This document shows, piece by piece, positions 7,013 to 58,292 of a DNA stretch of 64,000 bases; within the stretch, counting starts at the first letter, position 1, and each line of letters begins with the position of its first letter. The stretch lies in NCBI GenBank assembly GCA_942493315.1, contig OW818690.1, forward strand, positions 942,696 to 1,006,695, written 5' to 3'. The position numbers and the translations under genes are program-made. The stretch is from an uncultured Bacteroidota bacterium (GTDB taxonomy: Bacteria; Bacteroidota; Bacteroidia; Bacteroidales; WCHB1-69). A model generated the notes under the pieces. It was not told the DNA's origin, ran no database searches, and worked only from the letters and a program-made list of their open reading frames with translations.

Positions 7013-7050
7013 TCCCTTAGGTCTGGTGACTAACCAAACGTTTTTTTCAC

Positions 7051-7058
7051 TATATTTG
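7051..7058 (+). promoter_or_regulatory. -7 promoter box (TATATTTG) upstream of the EF-G paralog
   Basis: TAnnTTTG match 57 nt upstream of the ATG at 7115. Confidence 0.4.
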
Positions 7059-7114
7059 CGCCCTCAAATTAAAAATATAAAAAATTTAAGATTTAATAAT
7101 AATTTAAGACCACA

Positions 7115-9244: not shown

Positions 9245-9269
9245 TCTATTGCTTTTTCAATCTCATAAA

Positions 9270-9298
9270 GGAGTATCTGTTAAGATGCTCCTTTTTTG
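9270..9298 (+). terminator. Rho-independent terminator after the EF-G paralog
   Basis: Stem ggagtatc/gatgctcc (one G-U pair) followed by a T-run. Confidence 0.55.
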
Positions 9299-9495
9299 TT
9301 TGTTATCTTTTTTCTCATCAATTTAAATTTTTTTAGTATTTTTGACACCTTAAAAACTGACATGTAAGTAAGAGATTATCTATTATCAATGTTTAAAATT
9401 TTATTTTTATTTCCGATTAAGAAAATAAATTTACCATTAACAATATAATTGGTATGTTAACACTTACACTAAATATCTAATTATAATGAATTATT

Positions 9496-18520: not shown

Positions 18521-18808
18521 ATTAGATTAGCAAAAATCAGACCTTTAATGCTCAATGTGCTCGTTAGGTCATTATTCATTTTTAGACTCCAATTGGTGTT
18601 GATTGATTACAAATATAACGCTACTCTGTAGCGAGCTAATCCATCGGATATTCATTTGCTACCAATATAACGCTCCTCTGGAGCGGGATCTACAGACTGC
18701 GGACTACAGACTAATGAAAAATGAGCACATTGAGCATTCGAGCACATTGAGCATTCGAGATTCTCCTGTCATCCTTTCACCCTTAGCCCTTAGCCTTTAG
18801 CCCTAAAC

Positions 18809-39012: not shown

Positions 39013-39020
39013 TATCTTTG
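39013..39020 (+). promoter_or_regulatory. -7 promoter box (TATCTTTG) for the AAA ATPase gene
   Basis: It overlaps the TTG start tracked at 39018, which supports the ATG at 39036. Confidence 0.4.
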
Positions 39021-39035
39021 CCAAAAATTATATCC

Positions 39036-40238
39036 ATGAAACAGTTATTTCTTTCTTTTTATCGTAAACTTTCGGAAACAGATATGCGCTTTGAACGCTA
39101 TTTGTTGAAACAAATTGACTGGAACAATCGACTTATAGCCATCACTGGTGCTCGTGGTACAGGAAAAACAACCTTATTACTACAACATATCAAAGAGATG
39201 TACGGCAATAATCCCGAGGATATTTTATTTGTAAGTTTAGATAATATTTATTTCAGCAATAACAATTTATATACGCTGGCCAATGATTTTTACACTTATG
39301 GAGGTCGTGAGTTGTATCTTGATGAGGTGCACAAATACCCTAATTGGGCTCAGGAGATCAAAAATATGTATGATGATTTCCCAAAATTAAAAGTTATTTT
39401 TACCGGTTCCTCAATGTTGCAAATTTTTAACGCGGATGGAGATTTGAGCAGACGGGTGCGCCATTATCAACTGTTTGGATTATCATTTCGTGAATTTTTG
39501 ATTTTTGAAGGGATTGTTCCGATATCGCAATGCAATTTTTCTTTAGAACAAATTCTCCATCATCATATCGAAATTGTAAATCAAATAACGCATTCAAAAT
39601 CTATTTTATCAGCTTTTCAAAAATATTTACAATACGGTTATTATCCTTATTATCAAGAAGATACTCCTGGTTACAGTGATCGTGTTTTACAAACTTTCAA
39701 TACAGTAATGGAGAGTGACTTACCTAATGTAGAAAGGATCGATTTTGATTCGATTCATAAAATTAAAAAGTTATTTTACATTTTATCAGAAATGATTCCA
39801 TACACTCCAAACATATCGCAATTGAGTCAAATGGTGGGTGTAACGCGTCCAAGTTTAATGAATTATCTTCAACATCTCGAAAAATCGCATACCATTTTAT
39901 TATTGAAACAAAAAGCAACAGGTATGAGACAATTAGTAAAACCTGAAAAAATCTATCTGCAAAACACGAATTATACTTATGCTTTATCGAAGAACAATCC
40001 GGATGTTGGTAATTTGCGTGAAACTTTCTTTTTCAACCAGATCCAACAAAATCATAAGGTCACCTATACAGAAAACACCGATTTTTGTGTGGATGATCAA
40101 TACTATTTTGAAATAGGCGGAAAGAACAAAAACGGCAAGCAGATTCAGGGTCTTCAAAACTCCTTTTTAGCCCTTGATGGGATCACCTGTGGATTTAGAA
40201 ACGAAGTACCCCTCTGGCTATTTGGATTTTTGTATTAA
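39036..40238 (+). CDS. AAA-type ATPase (DUF4143-family-like)
   Basis: Walker A GARGTGKTT and Walker B LYLDEVH. The size and C-terminal region resemble the common Bacteroidota AAA+/DUF4143 proteins. Confidence 0.75.
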   Translation: MKQLFLSFYRKLSETDMRFERYLLKQIDWNNRLIAITGARGTGKTTLLLQHIKEMYGNNPEDILFVSLDNIYFSNNNLYTLANDFYTYGGRELYLDEVHKYPNWAQEIKNMYDDFPKLKVIFTGSSMLQIFNADGDLSRRVRHYQLFGLSFREFLIFEGIVPISQCNFSLEQILHHHIEIVNQITHSKSILSAFQKYLQYGYYPYYQEDTPGYSDRVLQTFNTVMESDLPNVERIDFDSIHKIKKLFYILSEMIPYTPNISQLSQMVGVTRPSLMNYLQHLEKSHTILLLKQKATGMRQLVKPEKIYLQNTNYTYALSKNNPDVGNLRETFFFNQIQQNHKVTYTENTDFCVDDQYYFEIGGKNKNGKQIQGLQNSFLALDGITCGFRNEVPLWLFGFLY

Positions 40239-41826: not shown

Positions 41827-42056
41827 AGGGCGTGCCGGCTTCCCCACCCACAATCCAACCCACGCCGTCGGTCTCCGGCCCATTTTCAGAATGCTCAATG
41901 TGCTCGAATGCTCTTGTGCTCATATACTCGATAGCTCTTTTCATTTTTCATTTATAATTAGCACAATACTATTCACTATTCACTATTAGTTATTAACTAA
42001 TTTTTCATCCCCTAAGCAGCTCAACTTGCGGGGTATCTGGCCTCCGCCCTAATGCG
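41827..42056 (+). repeat. GC-rich repeat family A, copy A2 (interior replaced by low-complexity modules)
   Basis: The 5' part agggcgtgccggc..gtcggtctccggccc and the 3' part ctaagcagctcaacttgcggggtatctggcctccgccctaatgcg match A3 and A1. Confidence 0.6.
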
Positions 42057-42430
42057 AAAAACCTGCGGTTTTTTGGGTTTTAGGTTTTGGGTATTGGTTT
42101 TTAGTTCTCAGTTTTTGCTCCGGTCTCCAGTCCCTCGTCTCTTGTCCATTTTTCATTTCATTTGCTAATTTTTCCCGAAATCCTCTGAAACACTCCCCCC
42201 TCTCCCCACTCTCTTCTTTTGTCCTTCGTCCTTCGTCCAATTAGCTCATTATCATCTCCCTCCCCGCGATCTGGAAGATGGTCTCTATAGTTGATTAGTG
42301 TAAAGAGAATTAAAAAATAGAGCATGTCAATATTCAAGATCAATCAGTTATTTTTTATAATTAACTGTATTTTAATTGTTAAAAATCCTTAAAAAGAATA
42401 AAATCATTTGGATAAGTGGTTTTTAGTTTC

Positions 42431-42438
42431 TAAATTTG
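42431..42438 (+). promoter_or_regulatory. -7 promoter box (TAAATTTG) about 210 nt upstream of the five-gene operon
   Basis: TAnnTTTG followed by TCGCGTA, the same extension as at the ssb promoter. No other box lies closer to the ATG at 42648. Confidence 0.4.
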
Positions 42439-42647
42439 TCGCGTAAAAATTGGATCACTAAAATTTTTCTATTTCATTCTACAGTTGACTTTAAAATAAT
42501 TTGTGAAAATCTTTATAAAACAAAACACACTTAATTAATTATTGTTTTAAGAGAATAGTTTTTTAAGTTCTTATATTAACATCAGAGAACTAGATTTTTT
42601 TAATTTTAAAATTATAGCAATATTAAAATAAAAAACCCCAATAAATA

Positions 42648-45515
42648 ATGAAATTCAAATTACAAACTTGTTTTATTGGTTTAACTGTAGCAACTTTTTT
42701 AGTTACGATTGGCATTATATATTTTGGTTACATCAACAAAACTACAGATCGTCTTTATTTCTCAATAACCCAATTTGACTTGCCTAATAGTAATGACTTT
42801 ACTATTGGGGAGAACTCTGATATATGCTATAAGGATATACCTGAAAAGTATATGACTGTGTCGTATGATAATGGCGCATTTTCATACAAAATCAATAATT
42901 CAGATAGTTGTTTGTATTATTTCATAAACGACACCAATTATAACAAAGTTACTATACACATAAACGATAATATACAAGTTTTTGGACAAGTTTTTTCCGG
43001 TAAGTATTTAATCAACAAGCTGAAAAAACTCGACAATGAGTATTATATGCTTAAAGATGTAATGATTGATGATTTGAGTACTAAAATTCGCAATTCAATT
43101 AACACTGGTGAAATTGAATTCAACTCATTTATTCAAAAGAAACATAATAAATACTATCTTATCATTCTTGACAAATTTACAAAAATAAATAATATTGGTT
43201 ACTGTTATTCAAAAACTTTAAGTCCGGGTCAAGAATTTAAGATCCAGTTTTTCAAAATGAATAGTTGGAGTGTAAAAAAACAAGAAAAAAGATTTTGGGA
43301 TTATGTGCAATTTTGGGATTACAAAACCTATCTTTCTGACAGTATACGTTCTTATTTTGCAAAACCAGTGCAAATATTTACTGAGTGGGGTGCTGGTCAT
43401 ATCCTTGTAAAGAGAAATGATTTGCATTATTCAGCAACTTTCCCTAAAGCAATATCAACTACTATCCCAATAAAAAGGATAATTGAAACTGCTGATAGTT
43501 CTGAAACAGGGGTATATCTCAAACAAATGCTGAAATCATACTATATGCCTACTGATTTTTATATTCCTGCATTTTCTAATGCACTTTCTGAAAATATTTG
43601 TGAACTTTCGGTAGCAGAAAATTTTAACTTGGTTTTTCAAAAAGCAAATAATAGAGATACAGCAAATTGTCTAACGTCGGGTAGTTTAATACCAAAAATT
43701 AATATAAAAAATCAACAACTTGTTACAGGTGGTATTACGTACAAAACCCGGGTTTTAAATACTGCATTTTATTGGTCGAAGCATTGGTCGTTAGCTATTG
43801 CATGGTTTATATTGATGTTAATTTTACATTTTTCCTTTCCAAAATCAGGCGATGAACCATATGCAGAAAAAGTAAAAGACATTCGTTCATATATTTGTGG
43901 AATGTTTACTTTGTTCTGGTTTTTCCTTAATCAGAAGCTTTTAATTGCCGAAAAACTGACATTTACTTATCCTTATTTTGAAAAAATTTATTCTGTTGTC
44001 TACATAACAACATTGTTTTCGCTTTTTGCTGTGTTTTTGCTTATAGTGTTGATAAATCGTTCGTATTTTGATGAAAATGCACTTGGCGAAGACAGGTACA
44101 GTAACAACCCTTTTAGAGTAAAAAAATCAGGTTGGTTCAATTGGATTATTGCATGCGGAATAACTTCGATCTGTATTTATGCATACTGCAAAATAAAATC
44201 AAATTTTATCTTGCCGATTTGGAATAGTTATATTGACAAAGATTCTTTAGATATATGGACATTTTGGAAATGGCAAAAGATAGGTATGCTAAATGATAAT
44301 CATTTTACTGTATTTATGATAATTGGCAGCTTATTAATTTTCTTGTTGGTATTATTTATAATCTTATTTTGTATTAAAAGAAAATGGTTTAAACGAATTG
44401 AAAAAGTAAAAAAAATAACTCGTTGGACTGAACAGATATATGATATAATATATAGCAGAGTTTCAAATTTGATTAATTTTAAAAAACCTAAAACTTATGC
44501 GATTTACCTTATAATAATAATTATTGCATTATTCTTTGTGGTTGCACTATTAGGTAATTCTGGAACGGCAGTTGCCATTATAATGCTTTTACTTTTGCTT
44601 GGCAAAACAATGAAAGTTTTAATTGATGACTTTAATCAGATAGAGGATTTCAACAAATGGGCGAAATGGATATTCTTGACGATGTTGGGAGTCTGTATAT
44701 TTGTTGGAATCGGTATGTATGATTTCGGATTTTTCATTAATGTTTTTGGGATTGCTGTTACTTGGATTTTTTTAATTATTTTATCAGCAAAGTATTTTGA
44801 TAATTATGCAGATGAAAACGAGACAATTATCAAAAAGCAAATAAAAAAAGGACTGGGTTTAGGTTTTTTACTGGTTATTGTTAGTTGTTTCATAATTTTT
44901 TGGTGGAATTCAAACCCTGAAAAAATTGATTATGAAAGAAATACTCGTAGAATACAGAACTGCATTTATCCAAATCAAGTAAAAGAGGCAGGTTATCTTT
45001 ACACCGAAAGCGATATGCAGTGGATGGAAGTAATGCGGCACTATGCAGAAAAGGCGAGCAAATCAACAGACGATATTTACAGTGAAGATAATAATTTTCA
45101 CCAACTTATTGCATCTGGGCAATCGCCTGTTGTGCTTAATGATGTAAGCATACCTACTGTTTATCTTGGCTCTTTGCGTTGGTTGGGATTGTTTGGTTTG
45201 TTTTATGGAATAATGGCTTTGGGTTTTTTTGTCTATTCGTTCAGCATTGGTGATGTTAAAAGAATTAATAGTCGCGGCAATAACATTTATCCAATCAACC
45301 TTCAATTGATAAGGCGATTGCTTGCAGGTAACTTATGGATTTTTGTTACACTATATCTGATTAAATCTTATTATTGGGACAAATTACCCGTGCCTTTCAC
45401 TGGACGCCTGATACCTGGATTTGGAGTTGATGCAGTTGGAGAAGCATTAGAAATTATTGTGTTATTTGCATTTATGTGTTCTTTATATAATCCTTATAAA
45501 CAAAATATAAAATGA
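42648..45515 (+). CDS. Operon gene 1: 955-aa polytopic membrane protein, with an unknown N-terminal domain of about 360 aa and a divergent SEDS (RodA/FtsW)-like C-terminal part
   Basis: About 13-14 hydrophobic helices. Motifs comparable with E. coli RodA as I recall it: GNSGTAVAIIML vs PDLGTSILVALS; RRIQNCIYPNQVKEAGYLYTES vs [27 protein letters not shown]..LGLFG vs HTDFIFAVLAEELGLVG; LPVPFTGRLIPGFGVDAVGEALEIIVLFAF vs LPVVGVPLPLVSYGGSALIVLMAGFG. Confidence 0.5.
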   Translation: MKFKLQTCFIGLTVATFLVTIGIIYFGYINKTTDRLYFSITQFDLPNSNDFTIGENSDICYKDIPEKYMTVSYDNGAFSYKINNSDSCLYYFINDTNYNKVTIHINDNIQVFGQVFSGKYLINKLKKLDNEYYMLKDVMIDDLSTKIRNSINTGEIEFNSFIQKKHNKYYLIILDKFTKINNIGYCYSKTLSPGQEFKIQFFKMNSWSVKKQEKRFWDYVQFWDYKTYLSDSIRSYFAKPVQIFTEWGAGHILVKRNDLHYSATFPKAISTTIPIKRIIETADSSETGVYLKQMLKSYYMPTDFYIPAFSNALSENICELSVAENFNLVFQKANNRDTANCLTSGSLIPKINIKNQQLVTGGITYKTRVLNTAFYWSKHWSLAIAWFILMLILHFSFPKSGDEPYAEKVKDIRSYICGMFTLFWFFLNQKLLIAEKLTFTYPYFEKIYSVVYITTLFSLFAVFLLIVLINRSYFDENALGEDRYSNNPFRVKKSGWFNWIIACGITSICIYAYCKIKSNFILPIWNSYIDKDSLDIWTFWKWQKIGMLNDNHFTVFMIIGSLLIFLLVLFIILFCIKRKWFKRIEKVKKITRWTEQIYDIIYSRVSNLINFKKPKTYAIYLIIIIIALFFVVALLGNSGTAVAIIMLLLLLGKTMKVLIDDFNQIEDFNKWAKWIFLTMLGVCIFVGIGMYDFGFFINVFGIAVTWIFLIILSAKYFDNYADENETIIKKQIKKGLGLGFLLVIVSCFIIFWWNSNPEKIDYERNTRRIQNCIYPNQVKEAGYLYTESDMQWMEVMRHYAEKASKSTDDIYSEDNNFHQLIASGQSPVVLNDVSIPTVYLGSLRWLGLFGLFYGIMALGFFVYSFSIGDVKRINSRGNNIYPINLQLIRRLLAGNLWIFVTLYLIKSYYWDKLPVPFTGRLIPGFGVDAVGEALEIIVLFAFMCSLYNPYKQNIK

Positions 45516-46921
45516 GAGAAGAAAAAAAAGCAGTTCTGAAAAAATTAGGTAAAATTTTGCTAAATAATGGTTTGTTGATTGCGATTTTGTTGTATTTTAT
45601 TACATGTGGATTTTTTTGCAACAATTTTAACGGCAAATGGTTATTGTGGTTGTTTATTAGCTGTTTTATAGGTTGGTTGTTTTCATTCTTTTATAAAGAG
45701 TATGAAAAAGCTGATGAAATGACCATTGAACCTGTTATTTATGATCACAGATATGACGAGCAAGTAAGTTGGAAAGACAGATTGAAGAATATAGGAAAAA
45801 GCGTACGTGAGATGTCAGGGTGGAATTACTTACGTTGGGCTTTAATTATATCATTTTTATCGGTCGCATGCTATATTATGCACGAAAGCTTATCCTCGTT
45901 ATGGATAAAGAATGAAAAATGGGATAAAATTTTTTGTTGGTTTTTATCAATGATTGTTATTATAACCTTATTTTGGATAACTGGTTGGATAACCCATCAA
46001 CATTCAAAAATAAATAACAGCTACAAAAAATTGTTTTTTTTCAGTTGTATTGGACTTTACATTCTCTTCGATTTAGCTCCCTTTACTTTCAATTATTTTC
46101 ATATATATAGCAATTTTGGGAATACTCAAATAATGGCTCAGACCGTAAAGGCAAGTGATGAATTGATTAAACTTATAAAACCTATTATTTGGGAAGAAAT
46201 AAAACCTAAACAAATTATTTTAGATAGTTTAAATAATGTAAACAAAGAATATTTTAATGAGATAAAAAACTGTGAGAAACGAAAAGAAATATTATTGGAT
46301 TCATTTGACAAAATGGCTACTAGCATTAATCCATCTGGTAGAACTTCTAAATTTAAAACAACAAAAGACGGTGAAACTACTAAAACAGAAAGTTCAATTA
46401 CAACGATTAATAATCGGGTTAATCAAATAAGTCGACAAATAGAAAGTCTCAATAAGAAAGTTAAGGGAAAAGAGATATTTGAAAAAACAACTCCAATAGT
46501 AAATGATTTAAAAAGAACAGATATATTATTAAATGAAATTGATTCATTAATTAGAATATACAATGAAGCAAAATTTGATAATAATAAGGAAAATCAAATA
46601 AATATAACAAGAGATATAATTTTTAATGTAGGAAAATTAAATGGAGAATTTATTGATGATTCGATTTCAAAAAAACTTATTAGTATTATCAATTCTGAAC
46701 AAATTGAAAGGGATAAAGCATTAAATGATTTATTTGAATTGATTCTAGGTAAATATGAAGATAATAACAATCAATTGCCTATTGAAAAAAGAGAAATCCA
46801 TACACTTTTACATAAAGTTAGTATTCAGAGCGTTGCTTTAAGTGCCTTAATTGATTTAGCTCCTATTTTTTTGGCACTCTTGATTACTTTTCCAACAACA
46901 AACAGGAGAAAAAGACAATGA
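45512..46921 (+). CDS. Operon gene 2: 469-aa membrane protein with a central coiled-coil-like region and a C-terminal TM
   Basis: ATGA overlap with gene 1. It has about 5 N-terminal TM helices, a long charged Lys/Glu/Asn-rich helical region, and a terminal helix. The short motif DLAPF/DLAPIF is repeated. Confidence 0.55.
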   Translation: MREEKKAVLKKLGKILLNNGLLIAILLYFITCGFFCNNFNGKWLLWLFISCFIGWLFSFFYKEYEKADEMTIEPVIYDHRYDEQVSWKDRLKNIGKSVREMSGWNYLRWALIISFLSVACYIMHESLSSLWIKNEKWDKIFCWFLSMIVIITLFWITGWITHQHSKINNSYKKLFFFSCIGLYILFDLAPFTFNYFHIYSNFGNTQIMAQTVKASDELIKLIKPIIWEEIKPKQIILDSLNNVNKEYFNEIKNCEKRKEILLDSFDKMATSINPSGRTSKFKTTKDGETTKTESSITTINNRVNQISRQIESLNKKVKGKEIFEKTTPIVNDLKRTDILLNEIDSLIRIYNEAKFDNNKENQINITRDIIFNVGKLNGEFIDDSISKKLISIINSEQIERDKALNDLFELILGKYEDNNNQLPIEKREIHTLLHKVSIQSVALSALIDLAPIFLALLITFPTTNRRKRQ

Positions 46922-49251
46922 GTCAAGAGACGTCACATATTCGTATTAACCTGTTTTCTTTTTTCAACCACGAACAAGAAACAAACAAAATTCTAGAAAA
47001 CTTTGGGACATTACTTTGTCAAGACAAAGTTTTCGATAAAAGTTGGGGATTTATACGAAAAAAAGTAGAAGGAACTGAAAACTCATTTTATATTGGTGGT
47101 GGCAGAATGTATTTACCAAAACGACAACTTTCTTTTTACAATGAACAACCACCAAGGGAAATTTTTGGAGATATAAAAGAAAATGATATTGAAAAAAACA
47201 TCCAAGATTGGTGTAATTCAGCTGATATTTTTCTTCTTTGTTTACACTCAAATAATAAACCTGAAACAAAGTTTATTTCTCGATTAAATTGGTATATAAA
47301 AAAACACAATAGAAATAAAACAATTTTATATACGGTAACAAATTATATTAGACAGTTTGAATATTCCACTTTCGATGAATATGCTAATTTTTCAGTTACT
47401 CTTAATCAAGAATTGAATCATGCATATTTTCCGTATTCTGAAACAAATGAATTTATAAATTGGAAAAATGAAAAATTTTGTATTTGCAAAGAACTATTCT
47501 GTTTTACTAAACAAGCAAACAGTTACATTGATTTTTTACTATTTTGCCTCAATCAACTATACAAAGATATTGCGGAAATTAAAATTTCAGACAATAAAGC
47601 GTATCATTACAAAACAACGAATATAAACTTTAAATCATACAATAATATGGGAACAACTATAAAACTTGCAATAGTCGGCGCACCTAAAAACGGTAAATCG
47701 CATTTAATTTGGGATATTTACCAAATTTTCGAACAACAAGGTCGTAATTTGACTTTTGTAGAAGATGATTCATATGCAAGTCCTCAAATGCTTGCAAATA
47801 AATTGCTATCTGAAGACGCGCTAAATAAAACGCCTCACTCTTTGCAAACCAAAAGCAAAAATCATTACAAAGGACAAAATAAAGATTTTATTTTAGAATT
47901 TATGGATGTCGCGGGTGAGGCTTTTGATGACGGCAAAGTGATAACCGAACAATTTCGCACAATTAAAATGATGCTTAAGAAAAGTAGTTATTTCAATAAT
48001 AATAAGCCATTTATAGAACATTCTGATGATAAAAAAATCAGTATAACGTTTAATAAAAATGAAAATACTACAACTCAAAGTCCGTCTCAACTCCAAACAG
48101 ACGAACCGTCTGGACGTGAGGGAATACCACAAACGCAACAAGATGAAAGCAATGTTTCTCAAAATAATTTAAACAGGAATATAAAAACCCAACAAAGAAA
48201 TGGGAAATATATTGCTAAAAATTTTGAGAGGTACGATACTGAGAGTTTAATTGCATGTTTGAAACAAGTTGTTACTTTCGCATTACGAACAGACGGATTA
48301 AGTCGTTATCACGATACACTAAGAGTAATTAATAACGTTGATTTTTGGAATGATTTTTATGCTTATGTTTTTTGTGATAATTGTACAGACATTGTTTTTT
48401 GTGATTTAGTTACTTTACCAAATAACATGACTGCTATTTCTGAAACAGGCAAAGCATTTAGTCAATGTGTTTCAGGCGTTGGCGAGTTTTTAGCAGAAAA
48501 AAACACAAATTTCAAAGGTCGAAAGAAACCAAATATGTACGCTGTCTTTCGAGGATTAGATGCTATGATTACCTGTGATGATCAGAAAGATCCACAAGAA
48601 AACAAACTAAAAGAAATTTTAAAAAATACTAATGATGAAACAAAGAAAAAGTTATTACCCTTTGTGTATTTTCTATTTCATTTATCCGTTTATCAAAATT
48701 TCATGAATGATTATTTTACAAAAGATGATTTCGATAAATTATGTGAAAGTATTATTAATAATAACAATTGTTTTATCAAACAACTACAGTCTCTAAATCT
48801 AGATTTAACCGATAAAACTAACCTACAAACTTTTTTGTCTGGATTGCTCAAAAACGATACGGAATTTACTATAAACGATAGCAGGTCTACAAAACTTAAT
48901 GATGTATTCTACGATAGAATAGAGAAGCTAAGAAATATGAACGGTATGCTTGAAAGATTCAATGGAAATTCAGATATTTTTCCTCATATTTATTTTACGG
49001 CATATCCTATTTGTCAGAAATTAGACATTCATAAAAATTTGCCTGTAGATGGTAACCCTAATAATATTGACGGTTTAACTCCCACAGATTTACGTTTCCC
49101 TTTGGGGGTATATAATTTTATTACAGATTTAGTATATTCACATACGCAAAGCGGCAAACAGGGAACTGATATGGAAAACTATTTGTATTTAAGTAAGAAT
49201 GTACAAAAACAAAACAAGTTTAAACAGATATGGAAAATAATAACGAGATAA
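46918..49251 (+). CDS. Operon gene 3: 777-aa soluble P-loop GTPase-like protein (active-looking core preceded by a degenerate copy)
   Basis: ATGA overlap with gene 2. Walker A/G1 is G254-APKNGKS-261 (47677-47700) after the strand IKLAIV. A DxxG/G3-like D330-VAG-E sits after the strand ILEFM (47905-47919). The N-terminal 150 aa show a strand pattern without a P-loop. Confidence 0.6.
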   Translation: MSQETSHIRINLFSFFNHEQETNKILENFGTLLCQDKVFDKSWGFIRKKVEGTENSFYIGGGRMYLPKRQLSFYNEQPPREIFGDIKENDIEKNIQDWCNSADIFLLCLHSNNKPETKFISRLNWYIKKHNRNKTILYTVTNYIRQFEYSTFDEYANFSVTLNQELNHAYFPYSETNEFINWKNEKFCICKELFCFTKQANSYIDFLLFCLNQLYKDIAEIKISDNKAYHYKTTNINFKSYNNMGTTIKLAIVGAPKNGKSHLIWDIYQIFEQQGRNLTFVEDDSYASPQMLANKLLSEDALNKTPHSLQTKSKNHYKGQNKDFILEFMDVAGEAFDDGKVITEQFRTIKMMLKKSSYFNNNKPFIEHSDDKKISITFNKNENTTTQSPSQLQTDEPSGREGIPQTQQDESNVSQNNLNRNIKTQQRNGKYIAKNFERYDTESLIACLKQVVTFALRTDGLSRYHDTLRVINNVDFWNDFYAYVFCDNCTDIVFCDLVTLPNNMTAISETGKAFSQCVSGVGEFLAEKNTNFKGRKKPNMYAVFRGLDAMITCDDQKDPQENKLKEILKNTNDETKKKLLPFVYFLFHLSVYQNFMNDYFTKDDFDKLCESIINNNNCFIKQLQSLNLDLTDKTNLQTFLSGLLKNDTEFTINDSRSTKLNDVFYDRIEKLRNMNGMLERFNGNSDIFPHIYFTAYPICQKLDIHKNLPVDGNPNNIDGLTPTDLRFPLGVYNFITDLVYSHTQSGKQGTDMENYLYLSKNVQKQNKFKQIWKIITR

Positions 49252-51842
49252 AATTTTCGGTAATAGTAAGAGGTTCACTTACAACAAAAGAGGGTTATGT
49301 AGAAATTGCTTCAACACAAACTCATGCTATTTTACCAAACGATTTTGAAAATAGACACTCAGAAGATTTTTCGAGCGAATATGCCTCTTTGCTTGCGTTT
49401 AGGACAGAGAATTCTCCTTTTTTGTCAGTTATTCATATTCAAGGGCAACACATTGGAAGTTCATTGGCTGGTAGAATCTACGATACAAGAATTTTCTACA
49501 ATATTGATTCTGCAAGCTTGCGAAATTGTCATTTAAAAATTGGATCTATTGTCGGTAGTTTACCTCGAATACTGTCATTTTCCGAGAAGAAATTTGATTT
49601 AACCAACAGTGTATACGTAAAACCGTATAGGTTGTCAAAATCAGAGGCCGCAATAAATGGACTTAGCAGATATATAATGCAAGCCATTGTTGAAGGTAAA
49701 CGGCTTATTGTGAAATTAGATAGAAAAGATGCAGGATATTGGAAAGAAAATGGTGTTTTGGAAAATAATGAAGCACAAATGTTATTCGTTGCTATTGATT
49801 CTTTACCTGAAATATTGAGACCAGTTGCCTCTTTTGCGTTGTCGGTTGATGAGAAATTTGATAAAGACATATTAAAATATACTAATATAATTTTATATCA
49901 TGGCAACCGTAATAATCTTGCAATTAAAATTGATTCAAATACTTGCATTGAAGTTGCTTGGGATGATTTGGATAAAAATAACAACGACAAATTTTTCAAT
50001 CAACAAGATTTTTTTTCAAAAGTAGCATTGTGCACAATTAACAAATATCAAAGTGAAAATTTTGACTTCAAATACAAAGATTTTTTCAATTCAAAGTTAT
50101 CCTCAAAAGGAATGCTAGATGGTATTTATGATGTTCAAAAAGACCCTAATTTAAAAAAAAGTGTTGAATACCTCAAAATACAAAAAGATTGGGAACGACT
50201 TATTCGACACCCTGAAGTAATTGATAAAATAAGAGTAAATGCAGAAGAATTAGATTTTAATTTAAATAATTTATATAACTTCTTTGAAAATAATAAAAAA
50301 GTAGAAATCAGAGAAAAATATGTAGAATTTTTCTGTCTGACAAAATCTGAATTACAGGTCAATAAGCAACTTGAAATATTAAAAACAATTCTAAATATTC
50401 CAGATGCTAATATTGAAAAAGAATTAAAAAATCTATTATTAAATAAATTGACATTACAAATATTTCATCAAAACTTAAATATTGATGAATGGATAGAAGT
50501 TGCAGAACTTTTTATTAATACAAAATATGAGCAACAATTAATTGAAAAGACAAAGCAACAAGATTTATACTTTTTTGAGAAACTTTATAAGAAAGGTAAA
50601 TACTTGGAGATTGTCGGACAATGTTTCAAAGAAACGACTGCTTACAAAAATAATTTTAAAGAAATATGTCAAAAGCCATTTATTGATTATTTGCCTGAAG
50701 AAAAATTACAAATGTTGAGATTTAAGTTTCTTTCTAATTGTGAAAGCTCTGATTTTAAGGAAATATATAAAGATCTCAAATTTGAAGAAGTAGAAAAGTT
50801 TTTGGTAAATAAAAACAATGATGAATATATTGTAAAATTGATAATTAAATATTTTCCAAATAAATGTAAGCAATTTATTGAACAAAATTCTGAAATTACC
50901 ATTTCTCAAATTGGAAAAGCTATATTAAATAATGATGATGTTACTAATAGTGAAATTTATAAGTTGTACAAAAAAGCAGATCTGAAACCCACAAAACCGC
51001 AAATAGAATTAACAATTTCTAATCTTGAAAATATATATAATAATACCCAAAAACTTGAATTTGACATATCAAATGAAATTACAAAACTATATATATCTCA
51101 TCCAATAATAACCAATTGGAAAAAAATTCATGAAACAACAAATCAAAATCCACCGGAAGAATTTACATTAAACGAGATTATTGATAAAAATGAACTTAAG
51201 GCTTATCAATATTTATTAAAACAAAACATTAAATTACCTGAGATTAATATTGAAAAAATGATCAAAAACACTAATGATTATGACAGTTTTTGCAATTTAT
51301 TTGATGATCTTACAGAATTAAAAATCGATTTTTCAGAGTTTAAAAAAACATTAGAAAAGAAACAATTCGAAAGGAAAAATATTATTTTAAAAAAATATTT
51401 TAACAATAAAAGCTCATCATCTTTATCACAAGAAAATATTAGGAAAAGATTGGTTATTTTAATTTTAATTGCTTTGATCATTGGTTTTGGAGGTGGATAT
51501 AATATGAGATCTTTAATTACAAGTAAAAAAGAACAGAAGGAAACAACTTTGAACTCAATTCAAGATACTGTAAATATTCAAACACATGATTTAGTAAATC
51601 AAACTTTTTTAATTTTTTATAGAAAACAAATTAATAATGATATTTATTCAAATAACGATACGATCAAAGCAAACGAAAAGAGTTTAGCGGATTGGTTTTC
51701 TCTATATAAGGAAAAGAATTTGATAGTGGACTCTATTAAATTAAAGGATTCAGTTTATTTATTAAAATTAAAAATAGATGGACCTGAATCAGCAACAATC
51801 TTTTATCAGAAAATAGACTCAATAATTAACAATTTGAAATAA
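49230..51842 (+). CDS. Operon gene 4: 870-aa mostly helical protein with a single TM near the C-terminus
   Basis: 22-nt overlap with gene 3. The TM LVILILIALIIGFGGGY spans aa 741-757 (51450-51500), with a tail of about 110 aa beyond it. I recognise no catalytic motif. Confidence 0.55.
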   Translation: MENNNEIKFSVIVRGSLTTKEGYVEIASTQTHAILPNDFENRHSEDFSSEYASLLAFRTENSPFLSVIHIQGQHIGSSLAGRIYDTRIFYNIDSASLRNCHLKIGSIVGSLPRILSFSEKKFDLTNSVYVKPYRLSKSEAAINGLSRYIMQAIVEGKRLIVKLDRKDAGYWKENGVLENNEAQMLFVAIDSLPEILRPVASFALSVDEKFDKDILKYTNIILYHGNRNNLAIKIDSNTCIEVAWDDLDKNNNDKFFNQQDFFSKVALCTINKYQSENFDFKYKDFFNSKLSSKGMLDGIYDVQKDPNLKKSVEYLKIQKDWERLIRHPEVIDKIRVNAEELDFNLNNLYNFFENNKKVEIREKYVEFFCLTKSELQVNKQLEILKTILNIPDANIEKELKNLLLNKLTLQIFHQNLNIDEWIEVAELFINTKYEQQLIEKTKQQDLYFFEKLYKKGKYLEIVGQCFKETTAYKNNFKEICQKPFIDYLPEEKLQMLRFKFLSNCESSDFKEIYKDLKFEEVEKFLVNKNNDEYIVKLIIKYFPNKCKQFIEQNSEITISQIGKAILNNDDVTNSEIYKLYKKADLKPTKPQIELTISNLENIYNNTQKLEFDISNEITKLYISHPIITNWKKIHETTNQNPPEEFTLNEIIDKNELKAYQYLLKQNIKLPEINIEKMIKNTNDYDSFCNLFDDLTELKIDFSEFKKTLEKKQFERKNIILKKYFNNKSSSSLSQENIRKRLVILILIALIIGFGGGYNMRSLITSKKEQKETTLNSIQDTVNIQTHDLVNQTFLIFYRKQINNDIYSNNDTIKANEKSLADWFSLYKEKNLIVDSIKLKDSVYLLKLKIDGPESATIFYQKIDSIINNLK

Positions 51843-51845
51843 AAT

Positions 51846-54659
51846 ATGGTAAACTTTAATCCACATAACAAAAAAATGCTTTGGGCAATAATTATAGTAA
51901 TTGTTTTGATAATAATTTGTGTATTTATTATTTCCTTTTTCAGTCATAGTAGTAAAAGTTATTATGAACCCATTTCCGAACAAAACAGAGGCTTTATCGG
52001 CAAGGCAGATGCTCTATTTGATAAACTACTTAATGAAAATACTATAGACAGTATAGATGCAAGAAGTTTGAGCGATCTAAACAGAAAATATCCTGCTTTC
52101 TTTTTTGATATTCCAGATTCGCTCAATCAAGATATTAACATTCAAGATATTCGCTTGGTAGGCATCAATGAATCCCTATTAAAAGATAAAAAGGATATTA
52201 CTTTTTATGAAAGTAGTGATTTACGAAATCTATTTAAGCAGCAACGATTAAATAAAGATAAAGCATATTTTAAAGTCTCTATAAAAAAAGAAAAGGGAAA
52301 TCTTTATATTAAAAAAATACAAATGATACGATCATTGTTTAAAATAAAGTTTTCAAATCAAATTTGGGAAGGAGATATCTTAGGACAATTCAATAATCCC
52401 ATAAATGATGAGAATTCAAGATATTTCATTTATGGTAGTTCTGTATTACCTATTCGTTTACAGAATTATCAACTAAATACAAATAACGACATGTCCAACT
52501 ATCCAGTATATCTTTTAGATGATAAAATACATGGTAAAGGTATATTTAAGAAAATTGATAATAAATTTGTCAATTTTGACTTGTATGAACATTATAATAA
52601 ACATTATTGTGATTCAAGTGAGTGTTTTGAATTGAAGTTTGATACTCTAGAACATGACAACAACCATTTTATGTCTTTGCAGGTTTTAAAGAATAAATTG
52701 ATTTTTGATTTAGATCAACGTTTAACTGTAACATGCATTACCAAACAGAATCAACAAAAACTAATATCCGGTTCTGGAGCAAAAGAAGGCCGTAGAATTT
52801 TTAATTACGCTCCAGATTCTGAAAACATAAGGATTATTATAGAAAATGAGAATGGATTAAAATTAGCTGAATTTCATATTGCGAAGCATAATCCCTTGAA
52901 AAAACTATCCTATATTATCGAAACTAATAAAGGAAAAACGCGTAAACAAATTGATTCAAAATATACAGATGTGTTCACACAACAAGTTGTACTTAATTTT
53001 CTTAAAAATATTAACGAACAAGATACTCAAAGTGTAATTTCTTTATCAATAGACCCATATCTTTCTTGTGCTTTAGAGAAAGAACTTGAAAATTATGGGA
53101 ATACATTTATACCTGAAAATGGATTAACTAATAATGAACATTTTGAAATTTCAATATGTGTAATAAATACAGCAACAGGAGAAGTCTTAGCTGCACCATA
53201 TTACAACTATACCCCTTTGCCTTTAAGTCAAGAAAGGAAAATCTCAAAAAGAAATCCAAATATGACTCGCCGTTATATTGGTTCGTGTTTTAAACCTTTA
53301 ATGGCGCTGGCGTCCACGCAGTTATATCCTGAATTATTAAATCTTACAACTGGGATACACAGTGGAAGGACTCAAGCCCCAATAGCAACTGGTGAAACTT
53401 ATATTAAAAACCATATTACATATAATTACTATAATACAGAGATATTGGGATGCCCTTTTTATCATACATTTAGTACAACAGCTTCTAATATACAACATTA
53501 TACAAAACCAATAAATATGGAAACTTTTTTAGCTTCATCAAATGATGTTTTTCCAGTAGTCTTGGCAATGTATAGTTTAACAAAATTCAAAAATAATGAT
53601 CCTTTAACACAAGAAAATACGAATTTACAAAATTATATTTCACAAAACAATAATTCAAGTAATATTTCATTATTAAATCCTATAACAAATTATCAAAATA
53701 ATGGAATTTTATTTGCAAATACGATGAATGCAATGGATTTTGATATTCATAAAAGTAATTTTGCAAAAGTATTGGACAATCTCTATTCAATTAAGTCAGA
53801 AGCAATTTTTAATACCGATTTTTTTGATCCAGAACCTGCACGTTATTTATTACGATATTTTGAAGATAGTATAATGATTTCGGAAATTTCTCCAGATTAC
53901 ACGAATATGGACTATTACAGTTGGAACGATAGTGTAAAATCATTCAGGAGTACAGTTGTTCCTTGGGTTTTAGGGCAAGGGACGAATGAATGGTCCCCAC
54001 TGAAATTAGCAGAAGCATGGGCACGAATGGTAACAAAATTTCCATTAAGATTATCTTATATTCATAACGAACATGTATCTGATATCTATAATGGTAGTTT
54101 ATTATACCAGCAGACACGTAAGTTATTGGGTGATAGATCCGGAAATCGTGAAACATGGAACACTTTTTTAGATATTTTTAAAGCTGCACAATCAAATACA
54201 AGTGTTGATGGTTCGAATACTCTAATCAAGGTATTCGATTTAATACAGAGTATTAACACAAATCAAAATAGAACTGGAAACAATCGTTTAATTGTTTTGG
54301 GTAAAACGGGCACTCCCGATGATTATGAACAAAGTGACTGGCAACACTTTGATATTTCGGGGAAGATTATTTATGATATCGGTTTATATACTTTCAGCAT
54401 TATGACTGAAGGACAATATCAAAGTCTCAAAAATAATATAACTATACCATCAAGAACAATCCCAAATGCAGGAATTACAGCAGTAATTAGGATTGTCCAT
54501 GCATATCCTGTTGGGATAACACCATTACTTATTACTCGGATTATTGCTCGGAATCAAATTTCTCATAATATTGATTCTAATAATGCCCGCAACTTTATTT
54601 CAAATGATAATCAAGTCTTGGGAAAAATTATTTTCTATAATGATAGACTTTTTAAATAA
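51846..54659 (+). CDS. Operon gene 5: 937-aa N-anchored protein with a penicillin-binding-protein transpeptidase-like domain
   Basis: N-terminal TM (LWAIIIVIVLIIICVFIISFF). PBP blocks: ISLSIDPYLSCALEKEL, VINTATGEVLAAP, S480-CF-K483 in RRYIGSCFKPLMALAS (53283-53294), S564-S-N566 (53535-53543), and K820-T-G822-T (54303-54314). Confidence 0.7.
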   Translation: MVNFNPHNKKMLWAIIIVIVLIIICVFIISFFSHSSKSYYEPISEQNRGFIGKADALFDKLLNENTIDSIDARSLSDLNRKYPAFFFDIPDSLNQDINIQDIRLVGINESLLKDKKDITFYESSDLRNLFKQQRLNKDKAYFKVSIKKEKGNLYIKKIQMIRSLFKIKFSNQIWEGDILGQFNNPINDENSRYFIYGSSVLPIRLQNYQLNTNNDMSNYPVYLLDDKIHGKGIFKKIDNKFVNFDLYEHYNKHYCDSSECFELKFDTLEHDNNHFMSLQVLKNKLIFDLDQRLTVTCITKQNQQKLISGSGAKEGRRIFNYAPDSENIRIIIENENGLKLAEFHIAKHNPLKKLSYIIETNKGKTRKQIDSKYTDVFTQQVVLNFLKNINEQDTQSVISLSIDPYLSCALEKELENYGNTFIPENGLTNNEHFEISICVINTATGEVLAAPYYNYTPLPLSQERKISKRNPNMTRRYIGSCFKPLMALASTQLYPELLNLTTGIHSGRTQAPIATGETYIKNHITYNYYNTEILGCPFYHTFSTTASNIQHYTKPINMETFLASSNDVFPVVLAMYSLTKFKNNDPLTQENTNLQNYISQNNNSSNISLLNPITNYQNNGILFANTMNAMDFDIHKSNFAKVLDNLYSIKSEAIFNTDFFDPEPARYLLRYFEDSIMISEISPDYTNMDYYSWNDSVKSFRSTVVPWVLGQGTNEWSPLKLAEAWARMVTKFPLRLSYIHNEHVSDIYNGSLLYQQTRKLLGDRSGNRETWNTFLDIFKAAQSNTSVDGSNTLIKVFDLIQSINTNQNRTGNNRLIVLGKTGTPDDYEQSDWQHFDISGKIIYDIGLYTFSIMTEGQYQSLKNNITIPSRTIPNAGITAVIRIVHAYPVGITPLLITRIIARNQISHNIDSNNARNFISNDNQVLGKIIFYNDRLFK

Positions 54660-54831
54660 CAAAAATAATAGATTAGGCTAATAATATTTTTCAGACTGAA
54701 GTGAAAATTTCGCCTCCATCTGAGTCACATGTTTTACCAAAAATTGGAGTTTATTTTTTGAATTTTTCTTTTAAGCAAGAATATTTAAAACCTTAATTTT
54801 TTTTTATAAACTATAAAATTTTTAAAGTTAT

Positions 54832-55329
54832 ATGATAAAAAATGAATTTTTCTGGGGGATTGTTGTTGGAGTTGTTCTAACCATTTTTGGGACACTGGTA
54901 CAATTTAAACTTTTTGCCTATTATGATAAACAAAAAATAAACAATGAATTGGCAATCATAACTTGTAAAACTATAAATTCGCGTTTGATTAGATCAAGTA
55001 ATGTTATTACATCATCCTCAAGTGATGTCTTTAATGAAAGATGGAATGAGTATATTATTGAAGGTGTTTATAAATGGAATGAATATAGAGGTTTGATTGA
55101 GCATTATTTGGCTGGTACTAAACCATTATTGAAATCTGAATTCAATTCTCTGAATTCAAAATTTGGTGTGTTACATAATAACTTAATAAGGATTCGTCAG
55201 CTTCAAAATTCAATTTCAAAAGATAAACAAATTGAGCTTGTTGTAAAAAAAAAAAAATCATTAGATATTTGTAAGGATATTCAAGAAACTTTAAACAAAT
55301 TCGAAAATGAACTTTTACAGTTTAATTAA
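54832..55329 (+). CDS. Hypothetical N-anchored 165-aa protein downstream of the operon
   Basis: N-terminal TM (FFWGIVVGVVLTIFGTLV) followed by helical sequence. Same strand and the same AT-rich composition as the operon. Confidence 0.4.
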   Translation: MIKNEFFWGIVVGVVLTIFGTLVQFKLFAYYDKQKINNELAIITCKTINSRLIRSSNVITSSSSDVFNERWNEYIIEGVYKWNEYRGLIEHYLAGTKPLLKSEFNSLNSKFGVLHNNLIRIRQLQNSISKDKQIELVVKKKKSLDICKDIQETLNKFENELLQFN

Positions 55330-55442
55330 AGTATGAATTTAATAATACTCTGTCCCTATTTATTTTATTTTCCCAAAAAAACCACATTCCACTCCCCTCT
55401 CCAATCCCCATAAATTGAACTTCCTATGCCCCATTCCGAAAT

Positions 55443-55510
55443 ACTGCACTTTTTCCTCTAAAAACTGCACATTTTCCTCGAAATAATGCACGGGTTGCGA
55501 AAAACTGCAC
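55443..55510 (+). repeat. Iteron-like direct repeats, 4 x A(A/C)TGCAC at 21/21/19-nt spacing
   Basis: actgcac at 55443-55449, actgcac at 55464-55470, aatgcac at 55485-55491, and actgcac at 55504-55510. The first two units share a longer context (a(t/a)actgcac(t/a)ttttcctc). Confidence 0.6.
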
Positions 55511-55765
55511 CCCCACAATTTTTTTTCTAACCCATTGTTTGATATTGTTTTTTTTGTATTTTTGACTCACGGAAAAATACTACACATACTCACTCGAGAA
55601 ACAGTTTCCATCTCACTTTTTACGTTCTTTGTTTCCTGTTTTATATCACTTGTTTTGAAGGGTTTGTTCCTTTTGATGTCATAGTTTTTTAAAGTAATAA
55701 CATGCGGGACACGATTACTTTTGAATCACATTGATCAAACTGTCGGAATGAATGACTCCTCCGGT

Positions 55766-55773
55766 TATCTTTG
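55766..55773 (+). promoter_or_regulatory. -7 promoter box (TATCTTTG) immediately upstream of the 21-nt tandem array
   Basis: TAnnTTTG match ending 11 nt before the first repeat unit. Confidence 0.35.
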
Positions 55774-55784
55774 TGTTGGATCAG

Positions 55785-56014
55785 GATCGGTTTCAATTCG
55801 GGCATGATCGGTTTCAATTTAGTCATGGTCGGTTTCAAATTGAGCATGATCGGCTTCAAATTGATCATGATCGGCTTCAATTCGGGCATGATCGGTTTCA
55901 AATTGAGCATGGTGGGTTTCAATTCGGGCATGATCGGTTTCAAATTGGGGGTGGGCGGTTTCAATTGAGCATGGTGGGTTTCAAATTGGGGGTGGTGGGG
56001 TTCAAGTTGGGCAT
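55785..56014 (+). repeat. Tandem array of 11 units of 21 nt (one unit is 20 nt), consensus gatcggtttcaa(a)tt(c/g)(g/a)gcat
   Basis: I parsed the units manually. They are contiguous with no spacers. Six units start with GATC and one further GATC lies inside unit 4. Confidence 0.9.
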
Positions 56015-56131
56015 AAGTGACTGCTGGCTGGAAGTGCTGATTGTCTAAGAGTACAGGTGATATGAGCCTTGTTTTGGCTTCATTCTGAAGTAAAAATAAA
56101 ATTATTATTCACAATCAAAAAAATTTCAGTT

Positions 56132-57593: not shown

Positions 57594-58292
57594 TCACATT
57601 ACCTTCACTACTCCGACGACCTGGTAGAGGCTTCTGATCTGGGATTTGTCGGTGAATATGGGTGGGTAGAGCTGGTCGTTTTCGGATACCAGCTTGTATT
57701 TGGTTTCGTTGGTGTCATCAGGATAGATGCGGCACACCTGGATGTGATTGGTGAACTTGATGATATACACCTTGCCCCAGTAAATCTGCTCCTCTTTGGA
57801 GACTTTTCTGCACGCAATGAGGTCTCCGGAGTTTAAATAGGGATTCATCGAGTCACCGGATATTTTTAGGAGAAACTGGGAGCCCTGATCCTCAAATTCC
57901 CGAATGTAATAATAGCTTTCTTTTTCCTGAATCTCTTCTTCGCTTAATTTGGGGTATTTAACAACATCATCATGGCTCAATAAGGGTAATCCGATTTTCT
58001 TGAGTACCATGTTTTTCAGAAATGTGTTGGGCATTTCGGAAACATTTTGGGATAAAAGTGCATCGTTTTTCAGCATACTACCAGAACCGGAAATCCAAAC
58101 TTTATTTATATTTTGATCCAATGCACAGAGCTTGTCTATGAATGATTTTGATAGCGAAACTTTACCATTTAAAATCTGAGAAAAATAAGATTTTTCGTAG
58201 CCTAACCGTTCAGCGATTTCTGCATCATTTTTCCCATACTCCTGAAAAATATACCAATTTACTAATTTTCTGACACGCTGTAAATCAAACAT
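57594..58292 (-). CDS. XRE-HTH + S24 peptidase (LexA/cI-like) repressor
   Basis: N-terminal HTH IAERLGYEKSYFSQILNGK. The C-terminal S24 domain has the Ser motif GDSMNP and a downstream Lys (ACRKV). Confidence 0.8.
   Translation of the reverse strand: MFDLQRVRKLVNWYIFQEYGKNDAEIAERLGYEKSYFSQILNGKVSLSKSFIDKLCALDQNINKVWISGSGSMLKNDALLSQNVSEMPNTFLKNMVLKKIGLPLLSHDDVVKYPKLSEEEIQEKESYYYIREFEDQGSQFLLKISGDSMNPYLNSGDLIACRKVSKEEQIYWGKVYIIKFTNHIQVCRIYPDDTNETKYKLVSENDQLYPPIFTDKSQIRSLYQVVGVVKVM

Follow-up and report, generated by a model that had tools for sequence, protein, structure and literature searches.

A soluble protein with predicted pseudo-GTPase and GTPase lobes in a five-gene operon tied to a divergent PBP-like enzyme

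The five-gene operon and gene 3

The window, i.e., the whole stretch of 64,000 nucleotides (nt) analysed in this work, is a part of contig OW818690.1 from an uncultured Bacteroidota bacterium of the Bacteroidales lineage WCHB1-69. Five co-directional genes that overlap or abut were found in it, and the third one, gene 3, is the main subject here. The open reading frame (ORF) of gene 3 starts with ATG and runs uninterrupted over 777 amino acids (aa), and homologues of 770-808 aa were aligned with it over the full length. Its product is predicted to combine a pseudo-GTPase and an apparently active GTPase in one chain. Gene order ties it to a polytopic membrane protein, gene 1, and to a protein with a putative, very divergent penicillin-binding protein (PBP)-type transpeptidase domain, gene 5. 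The features and their coordinates are presented in Table 1. Gene 3 shares 4 nt with gene 2 and 22 nt (49230-49251) with gene 4. The latter overlap falls in the C-terminal tail of gene 3, 16 residues (…KQNKFKQIWKIITR) which are peculiar to the gene 3 of the window and missing in the homologues. Scans for promoters, terminators and tRNAs gave nothing informative.

Table 1. Features of the operon and their positions in the window. TM, transmembrane.
Feature	Positions	Strand	Basis
Gene 3, 777-aa soluble protein, predicted pseudo-GTPase and GTPase domains	46918..49251	+	ORF, homologue alignment, TM scan, AlphaFold2
Predicted N-terminal pseudo-GTPase domain, Ras-like beta-alpha order, no Walker A, aa 1-222	46918..47583	+	DSSP, Foldseek
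Predicted GTPase domain with large helical inserts, YcjX/DO-GTPase-like, aa 245-777	47650..49248	+	fold, motifs, profile match
G1 / Walker A, GAPKNGKS, aa 254-261	47677..47700	+	conserved in 105/106
Candidate G2 (switch I) threonine, T305	47830..47832	+	Thr in 90/101; assignment to G2 inferred
G3 / Walker B, DVAGE with conserved glutamate, aa 330-334	47905..47919	+	conservation; follows beta2-beta3 pair 316-332
Disordered Q/N/S/T-rich insert, aa 379-409	48052..48144	+	pLDDT below 50, alignment, composition
G4 equivalent, RGLD, aa 545-548	48550..48561	+	D548 in 106/106; aligns with YcjX TKAD
G5 equivalent, FTAY, aa 693-696, after strand 691-694	48994..49005	+	conservation, AlphaFold2 strand
Gene 1, 955-aa polytopic membrane protein with 350-aa extracytoplasmic N-domain	42648..45515	+	TM scan, 37/38 loci
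Gene 2, 469 aa, four N-terminal TM segments, helical/coiled-coil region, C-terminal TM segment	45512..46921	+	TM scan
Gene 4, 870 aa, one TM segment	49230..51842	+	alignment, TM scan, 33/35 loci
Gene 5, 937-aa bitopic protein, putative divergent PBP-type transpeptidase domain	51846..54659	+	hhalign, invariant motifs
Gene 5 motif SCFK, aa 480-483	53283..53294		invariant in 18 homologues
Gene 5 motif SND, aa 565-567			invariant in 18 homologues
Gene 5 motif KTGT, aa 820-823	54303..54314		invariant in 18 homologues

All five genes were scanned for hydrophobic segments according to Kyte and Doolittle. Gene 3 reached a maximal 19-residue mean of 1.21 and showed no hydrophobic segment, while at least 11 such segments were counted in gene 1, five in gene 2, and one each in genes 4 and 5. 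An earlier reading made from the nucleotide sequence, below called the original prediction, had described gene 3 as the only soluble component of the operon. This was correct, since segments of TM type are present in genes 1, 2, 4 and 5 and none in gene 3. The same reading had placed a Gln/Asn/Ser-rich, probably disordered insert behind the DxxG motif of gene 3, and three lines of evidence confirmed it. Between aa 375 and 425, 82% of the residues are Q, N, S, T, P, E, D, K or G. The predicted local distance difference test (pLDDT) values of AlphaFold2 stay below 50 across aa 384-409, and the alignment of the family is variable and gap-rich in the same region.

Two G-like lobes in one chain

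Conservation was counted in an alignment of 107 representatives of the gene 3 family, with denominators from 101 to 107 depending on the column. The Walker A motif GAPKNGKS is preceded by the strand IKLAIV (aa 248-253) and the G3 motif DVAGE by the strand ILEFM (aa 325-329), both where the original prediction had located them. At about 105/106, neither match is due to chance, since both are conserved throughout the family. Within G1, the residues G254, G259, K260 and S or T at 261 were each found in 105/106 representatives, and within G3 the counts were 100/107 for P at position 332, 105/107 for G333 and 101/107 for E334. Position 330 was occupied by D in 55 representatives and by N in 49, a split explained by the paired paralogues, of which the two in L015 carry DIPGE and NIPGE. 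For the NKxD motif the original prediction had offered two candidates, and only FRGLD could be retained. It follows the strand 539-545 and makes the G4 equivalent, with D548 in 106/106 and R or K at position 545 in 104/106 sequences. The other candidate, VFCDL, is the end of strand beta4, a region with D491 in 103/106, C495 in 102/106 and D496 in 86/106 sequences. In the G5 equivalent, T694 was present in 79/105 and A, C or S at position 695 in 95/105 sequences. Y584 (106/106) and G730 (105/105) are further conserved columns. The motif set of the family can be written as GxxxxGK[ST], the switch-I Thr, [DN]xPGE, [RK]GxD and [TS][ACS][TS].

Two AlphaFold2 models were made, the first from an alignment of 7 sequences and the second from the alignment of 107. 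In the first one a confident fold was obtained for aa 1-220 only. In the second one the whole chain was folded, with a mean pLDDT of 86.9 and a predicted template modelling score of 0.77. The C-terminal lobe of this model starts with beta1 (246-254), G1, alpha1 and a 40-residue switch-I region containing T305, and continues with beta2/beta3 (316-332) and DVAGE. By their DSSP appearance the strands 316-320 and 324-332 in front of DVAGE resemble a hairpin. DVAGE is followed by helices, a small hairpin, the disordered insert and a helical bundle leading to beta4 (491-497, TDIVFCD), and then by beta5 (539-545), RGLD, a second helical insert, beta6 (691-694) and TAY. Foldseek searches of the PDB with this full model returned GTPases only among the 50 matches listed. 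The top match was Der/EngA (E 9e-5, 331-575 aligned columns), and Rab, EF-Tu, Era, EngB, Ras, Ran and YcjX were also matched. In BFVD the top matches were Ras-like GTPases of giant viruses. The structure prediction and fold search that had been proposed as a check on the TRAFAC reading thus agreed with it. The reading is further backed by the motif conservation, by sub-threshold Pfam signals of GTPase families and by a profile match to YcjX, the latter two described below. The C-terminal lobe is apparently an active TRAFAC-class GTPase of an undescribed family. A dynamin- or septin-like identity, also raised earlier, was not upheld: there was no Pfam signal for either, and neither family was among the 50 listed PDB fold matches.

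The DSSP pattern of the N-terminal domain was identical in both models, and the first model, folded only in aa 1-220, was used as a Foldseek query isolating this domain. There were 109 PDB matches at E<=1e-3, and all 50 listed were GTPases. Most of these were small GTPases, aligned over approximately 215-225 columns with probabilities of 0.94-1.00 and target-normalised template modelling scores of at most 0.60. No P-loop was seen in the N-terminal region of any family member aligned. In the original prediction, residues 1-150 had been taken for a degenerate, inactivated duplicate of the core. The order of strands and helices and the missing P-loop stood up to analysis, the fold being Ras-like, with the correction that the domain extends over aa 1-220. 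Its origin as a duplicate of the core is, on the other hand, not seen in sequence profiles. The N-domain profile, built from 23 sequences, was compared with the G-domain profile in hhalign, which gave a probability below 1% and a score of 18.8 that was reached by 3/30 shuffles, so that an internal duplication is not demonstrated. The comparison with an accessory small GTPase encoded in sister loci gave a score of 23.4, higher than all 30 shuffles, at a probability of just 3%, which is marginal. At the fold level the models support aa 1-220 as a dead Ras-like domain, i.e., a pseudo-GTPase. For Der-type targets the alignments covered about 215 columns when the N-domain-only model was the query and 331-575 when the full model was, and from this difference in length both lobes are inferred to be G-like.

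One further candidate came up for a part of the N-domain. A phmmer search of PDB sequences suggested LAGLIDADG homing-endonuclease similarity in aa 99-198, with a whole-sequence E of about 2e-4 and per-domain i-Evalues of 0.15-4. It was rejected because this region belongs to the confident Ras-like alpha/beta model and its sequence is N/K-rich.

Relatives, partner genes and locus architectures

The family is rare. An indexed search of 5.8 billion proteins returned seven proteins only, including that of the window, and 125 relatives were found when 1.84 billion cluster representatives (clusters at 50% identity) were searched exhaustively with a profile. None of the Pfam, NCBIfam or PADLOC models matched gene 3 above threshold. 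Sub-threshold Pfam signals came from DO-GTPase1 (E 0.0023, aa 252-357), DO-GTPase2 and MMR_HSR1, the DO-GTPase score being 17.7 bits versus a cut-off of 27 bits. When 83 relatives were scanned singly, again only sub-threshold GTPase families were met, with 3-4 of the 83 matching DO-GTPase at E<0.01. There was no Pfam match to YcjX (PF04317) in the window protein or in the 83 relatives. In PDB sequences the family profile found the P-loop of EngA at E 2.8e-5. An hhalign comparison of the G-domain with Escherichia coli YcjX was colinear over 245-374 columns (E 1.3-2e-4), and its score of 41.4 compares with 12-18 in 20 block-shuffled controls. The probability of 47-53% is low because the YcjX profile is shallow, all its sequences being at least 80% identical. 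The corresponding elements of the gene 3 family and YcjX are IRLAVVGxxSSGKS and LRLAVTGLSRSGKT, leFlDIPGE and LEIVDYPGE, ATDIVxCD and DRQIVLVD, and AFRGxD and ATKAD, respectively. Given the colinear YcjX match and the missed Pfam thresholds, the family is best described, from these profiles, as a new branch that lies close to both YcjX and the DO-GTPases and belongs to neither. The comparison with double-GTPase families put forward in the original prediction therefore went in the right direction, DO-GTPases and YcjX being the closest relatives found.

YcjX (DUF463, PF04317, PDB 6NZ4-6NZ6), a Ras-like stress GTPase of Proteobacteria, has in common with the gene 3 family, by this profile alignment, G1 of the form hhhAVxGxxxSGK[ST], G3 of the form DxPGE with the same glutamate and beta4 of the form xIVxxD. 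It has TKAD at the G4 position where the gene 3 family has [RK]GxD, and both have large inserts between G3 and G4 and work with membrane proteins. The Foldseek match of YcjX to the gene 3 model spans 410 aligned columns. Gene 3 differs in the extra pseudo-GTPase lobe and in a wholly different operon, and no YcjF (DUF697) partner was recognised, since genes 1, 2 and 4 gave hhalign probabilities of at most 0.3% to E. coli YcjF. DO-GTPases are TRAFAC GTPases with a conserved Walker-B glutamate, frequently found as two paralogues, often near the membrane and always with a GAP1 partner (Kaur et al., 2020, eLife; PMC7159879). A later paper assigns YcjX to the same family. The likeness of gene 3 to DO-GTPases (PF19975, PF19993) lies in the TRAFAC core, the Walker-B glutamate (E334), the paired paralogues and the membrane association. 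In contrast, neither a GAP1, GASH or FNIII partner nor a zinc ribbon and variable effectors were found for gene 3, whose partners form a fixed set including the PBP-like enzyme. Specifically, there was no Pfam match to GAP1, GASH or FNIII at E<=1 in genes 1, 2, 4 and 5, nor in the partners at loci of types A and C. Der/EngA is both the best fold match and the best sequence match (by the P-loop) in the PDB, and also has two G-like domains per chain. However, both G domains of Der are active, a KH domain is also present, and Der works on ribosomes, while the first lobe of gene 3 is without a P-loop and the second one carries approximately 300 residues of inserts.

Among the partners, gene 1 is by gene order an obligate partner of the GTPase, standing directly upstream in 37 of the 38 loci whose upstream flank extends over 3.5 kb or more, and it is the most conserved component of the operon. 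No relatives in a known family were found for it in Pfam or in a profile search of PDB sequences. Motifs like those of SEDS (shape, elongation, division and sporulation) proteins are colinear in it by eye (PDxG, Y..RR..P..GY..[QE]S, P...[NT]D, P.TG..LP). A SEDS identity (FtsW/RodA) of gene 1 was nevertheless rejected as unproven, the hhalign probability being 1.4% and the score 25.9 versus 29.2 for the reversed and up to 28.5 for shuffled profiles, with no Pfam match. Gene 2 was also compared with a protein of four TM segments (4-TM protein) from sister loci and not accepted as its relative, as the score was reached by 1/20 shuffles and was not significant. Gene 4 has a conserved cytoplasmic N-domain of 250 aa, a long variable helical region, the TM segment and a small outer domain. 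Its N-domain did not match GTPase, YcjX or PBP profiles. There are no known domains in genes 2 and 4, gene 4 being without a Pfam match at E<=1, and searches of PDB sequences with profiles of genes 1, 2, 4 and 5 gave nothing meaningful.

Gene 5 matched E. coli FtsI and PBP2 in hhalign with probabilities of 79-87%, E 4.5e-6 and a score of 57.1 versus a shuffle maximum of 23.5. SxxK, motif 2, GxG..PLxLA and KTGT were all in register, and the invariant SCFK, SND and KTGT are located in the ectodomain. With the motifs in register and the score above the shuffles, the gene 5 domain is, on these profiles, a very divergent PBP-type transpeptidase. It resembles class B PBPs (FtsI, PBP2) in being bitopic with an N-terminal anchor. 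It differs in its larger size (about 900 aa), in an unrelated N-terminal ectodomain of 400 aa, and in that no SEDS partner could be demonstrated. In 16 loci gene 5 is directly followed by a GH25 muramidase with a membrane anchor (Pfam E 1e-42), which is missing from the operon of the window (e.g., L021 at 18554-19381, L022, L024 and L036), in most of them with gaps of -22 to +22 nt. In L002 and L015, genes for LysM and GH25 proteins are found next to the operon. The output side of the operon points at peptidoglycan because of the PBP-like gene 5 and these GH25 and LysM neighbours.

Local hidden Markov models of all operon components were used for scanning 56 metagenomic loci, which fell into three arrangements. 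In type A, comprising 29/56 loci, gene 1 is followed by a tandem pair of short G-domain paralogues and then by genes 4 and 5. The tandem paralogues of L015, for example, are 27% identical, with DIPGE in one and NIPGE in the other. Type B comprises 12/56 loci plus the window, and consists of gene 1, gene 2, a fusion of the N-domain with the G-domain, gene 4 and gene 5. A single short G gene was found in 15/56 loci, and in four of the 15 genes 4 and 5 were fused. These single ORFs of approximately 1,200 aa (L057 3998-7645, L058 11640-15407, L060 11645-15337, L067 7001-10642) are, as far as sequence can tell, a Rosetta-stone link between the cytoplasmic/TM adaptor of gene 4 and the PBP-like ectodomain. 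The five-gene order was kept in all close homologues, in metagenome-assembled genomes (MAGs) of Chlorobiaceae and Marinilabiliaceae and in distant relatives. Among the 35 loci whose downstream flank measures 6.5 kb or more, gene 5 was found downstream of the GTPase in all and gene 4 in 33.

The accessory small GTPase, with canonical motifs (GxPxSGKT, DMAGE, TKxD), occurs in 30/56 loci and in 0/12 of type B. It is fused with, or stands beside, the 4-TM protein (e.g., L021 4004-6703, L057 7778-9967, L064 15211-18669). By profile comparison it is a clear paralogue of the G-domain (hhalign probability 69%, E 4.6e-5, score 41.4 versus a shuffle maximum of 18.8). In the type of the window, gene 2 and the pseudo-GTPase lobe would stand where other loci have the 4-TM protein and the accessory GTPase. 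The N-domain of gene 3 may therefore be a decayed, fused accessory GTPase of the kind encoded in the sister systems.

Two irregularities were noticed among the loci. L010, from the Chlorobiaceae MAG, has its gene 3 homologue in two separate ORFs, 6866-8692 and 8702-9343 (608 and 213 aa), which is either a frameshift/pseudogene or an assembly error. L003, L004 and L005 are contigs of about 12.5 kb in which gene 4 is a short version of 494 aa. The binning of L004 to Candidatus Falkowbacteria, of the candidate phyla radiation, may be unreliable, since the contig is little more than the operon.

A proposed GTP-gated switch and its alternatives

The reading that we prefer, and hold with moderate confidence, is that the operon encodes a GTP-gated trans-envelope module for peptidoglycan remodelling, with the two-lobed GTPase of gene 3 as its switch. 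The active lobe would cycle between GTP and GDP states. The pseudo-GTPase lobe would replace a partner GTPase in a pseudo-dimer formed within one chain, comparable to other paired G domains, and would so stand in for the second GTPase-like unit that is a separate gene in the sister systems. The switch would dock on the cytoplasmic domains of the membrane proteins 2 and 4. Protein 4, with its conserved cytoplasmic head and one TM segment running on into a PBP-like ectodomain in the fusions, would communicate the nucleotide state of the switch through the membrane to gene 5, and possibly to gene 1 as well. In this way the switch may control an extracytoplasmic PBP-type transpeptidase and a polytopic protein.

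Several points weigh against this reading. The first two positions of G4 are non-canonical, [RK]G versus [NT]K of the guanine-specificity motif, and the specificity for GTP is deduced solely from the invariant D548. The fold assignment of the C-terminal lobe is drawn from the longer Der alignments together with the sequence evidence, the hhalign probability to YcjX is 47-53% with a shallow profile, and the family is without any Pfam or NCBIfam model at threshold. On the side of the partners, gene 5 stays below the Pfam threshold for Transpeptidase (PF00905) and has SND instead of SxN as its second motif.

The surroundings of the operon bear on its origin. The GC content of the operon is 0.23-0.31 versus 0.33-0.40 in the flanks (42001-56000 compared with flanking DNA), and the operon is flanked by genes for an AAA_14/DUF4143 ATPase (39018-40238) and an S24 LexA-like peptidase (57594-58292). 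The low GC content and these two neighbours together suggest horizontal acquisition. They also fit an alternative in which the operon is an anti-phage or abortive-infection system of DO-GTPase type, its GTPase setting a threshold and, on infection, releasing the cell-wall enzymes, i.e., the PBP-like protein and in many loci the GH25 muramidase, to lyse or wall off the cell. The Walker-B glutamate and the paired GTPases agree with the DO-GTPases of Kaur et al. (2020; PMC7159879). The spread is rare and patchy (Bacteroidota, and MAGs labelled Chlorobiaceae, Marinilabiliaceae and Falkowbacteria), and the GH25 protein is anchored in the membrane by its N-terminus, in the manner of a signal-anchored lysin. 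Genes 2-4, at 27-52% identity among homologues, diverge faster than genes 1 and 5 at 43-67%, i.e., the divergence is faster in the cytoplasmic components. However, the GAP1, GASH and FNIII partners were not detected, gene 4 being without a Pfam match as stated above, and PADLOC finds no defence system. All components are constant, and there are no effectors that vary around a core. Viral contigs yielded no relatives, and many of the loci are on contigs of 30-198 kb. We regard a conflict system as the less likely reading.

More improbable still is a mechanochemical or scaffolding role for gene 3, as a dynamin-, septin- or cytoskeleton-like GTPase which would polymerise on the membrane and position the PBP-like enzyme. 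SEDS-class B PBP pairs are guided by FtsZ or MreB, which offers an analogy, and the large helical inserts, the tandem G-domain-like build and the coiled coils in the membrane partners would suit such a role. Nevertheless, neither dynamins nor septins gave a Pfam signal, the listed PDB folds were small and translational GTPases and YcjX, dynamins appeared in BFVD at low probability only, and gene 1 is not demonstrably a SEDS protein, its score remaining below that of its own reversed profile. We likewise give little credence to an ATPase or a non-catalytic nucleotide sensor with a generic alpha/beta interaction domain unrelated to GTPases at its N-terminus: [RK]GxD instead of NKxD at G4, N instead of D at the Walker-B position in half of the family and an N-domain without significant sequence similarity to any GTPase profile would fit it, but D548 is present in every representative and its counterpart in YcjX is the D of TKAD, the window protein retains D330, E334, K260 and T305, and the listed N-domain fold matches were GTPases in 50/50 cases at the high probabilities given above.

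Other features of the window were recorded in passing. A repeat array at 55785-56014 is made up of 11 copies, in tandem, of a unit of 21 nt (consensus GATCGGTTTCAATTTGGGCAT, 78% matches). It is located downstream of the operon region, at approximately 450 nt from the last small ORF there. The array yields repetitive ORFs at 55689-55964 (-) and 55752-56048 (+), which are probably not genes. At 16923-18464, 58609-61128 and 36081-38147 the window contains a DDE transposase, an iron transporter in which FeoA and FeoB are fused, and GldB along with several proteins sorted by the T9SS (Por_Secre_tail). GldB and the T9SS sorting domains are marks of a Bacteroidota genome.

No description of this operon was found in the literature searched for DO-GTPases and YcjX, and the module of GTPases, membrane adaptors and PBP-like enzyme had no matching model in Pfam, NCBIfam or PADLOC. 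Returning to the GTP-gated module, a wider version of it can be offered tentatively and with less confidence than the switch itself. It would be an undescribed, horizontally mobile trans-envelope machine, in which one to three cytoplasmic YcjX/DO-like GTPase modules gate a dedicated PBP-type transpeptidase via TM adaptors, and in many loci the GH25 enzyme as well. In the window, the modules would be the pseudo-GTPase lobe and the active lobe of gene 3, joined in one chain. Peptidoglycan synthases are known to be controlled by cytoskeletal polymers (FtsZ, MreB), by outer-membrane lipoproteins and by kinases, and to our knowledge no Ras-like switch GTPase is hard-wired to a PBP. If the wider version is true, it would provide the first example of a Ras-like GTPase switch acting directly on bacterial enzymes of peptidoglycan cross-linking or cleavage. 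The greater interest lies in the operon, where a GTPase family is tied by gene order to a divergent PBP. Its variants, with two active paralogues, with an active and an accessory GTPase, or with a fused pseudo-GTPase and active GTPase, would make a natural series for the evolution of paired GTPases, and the poorly understood YcjX/DO-GTPase assemblage would be extended to a concrete and testable enzymatic output.

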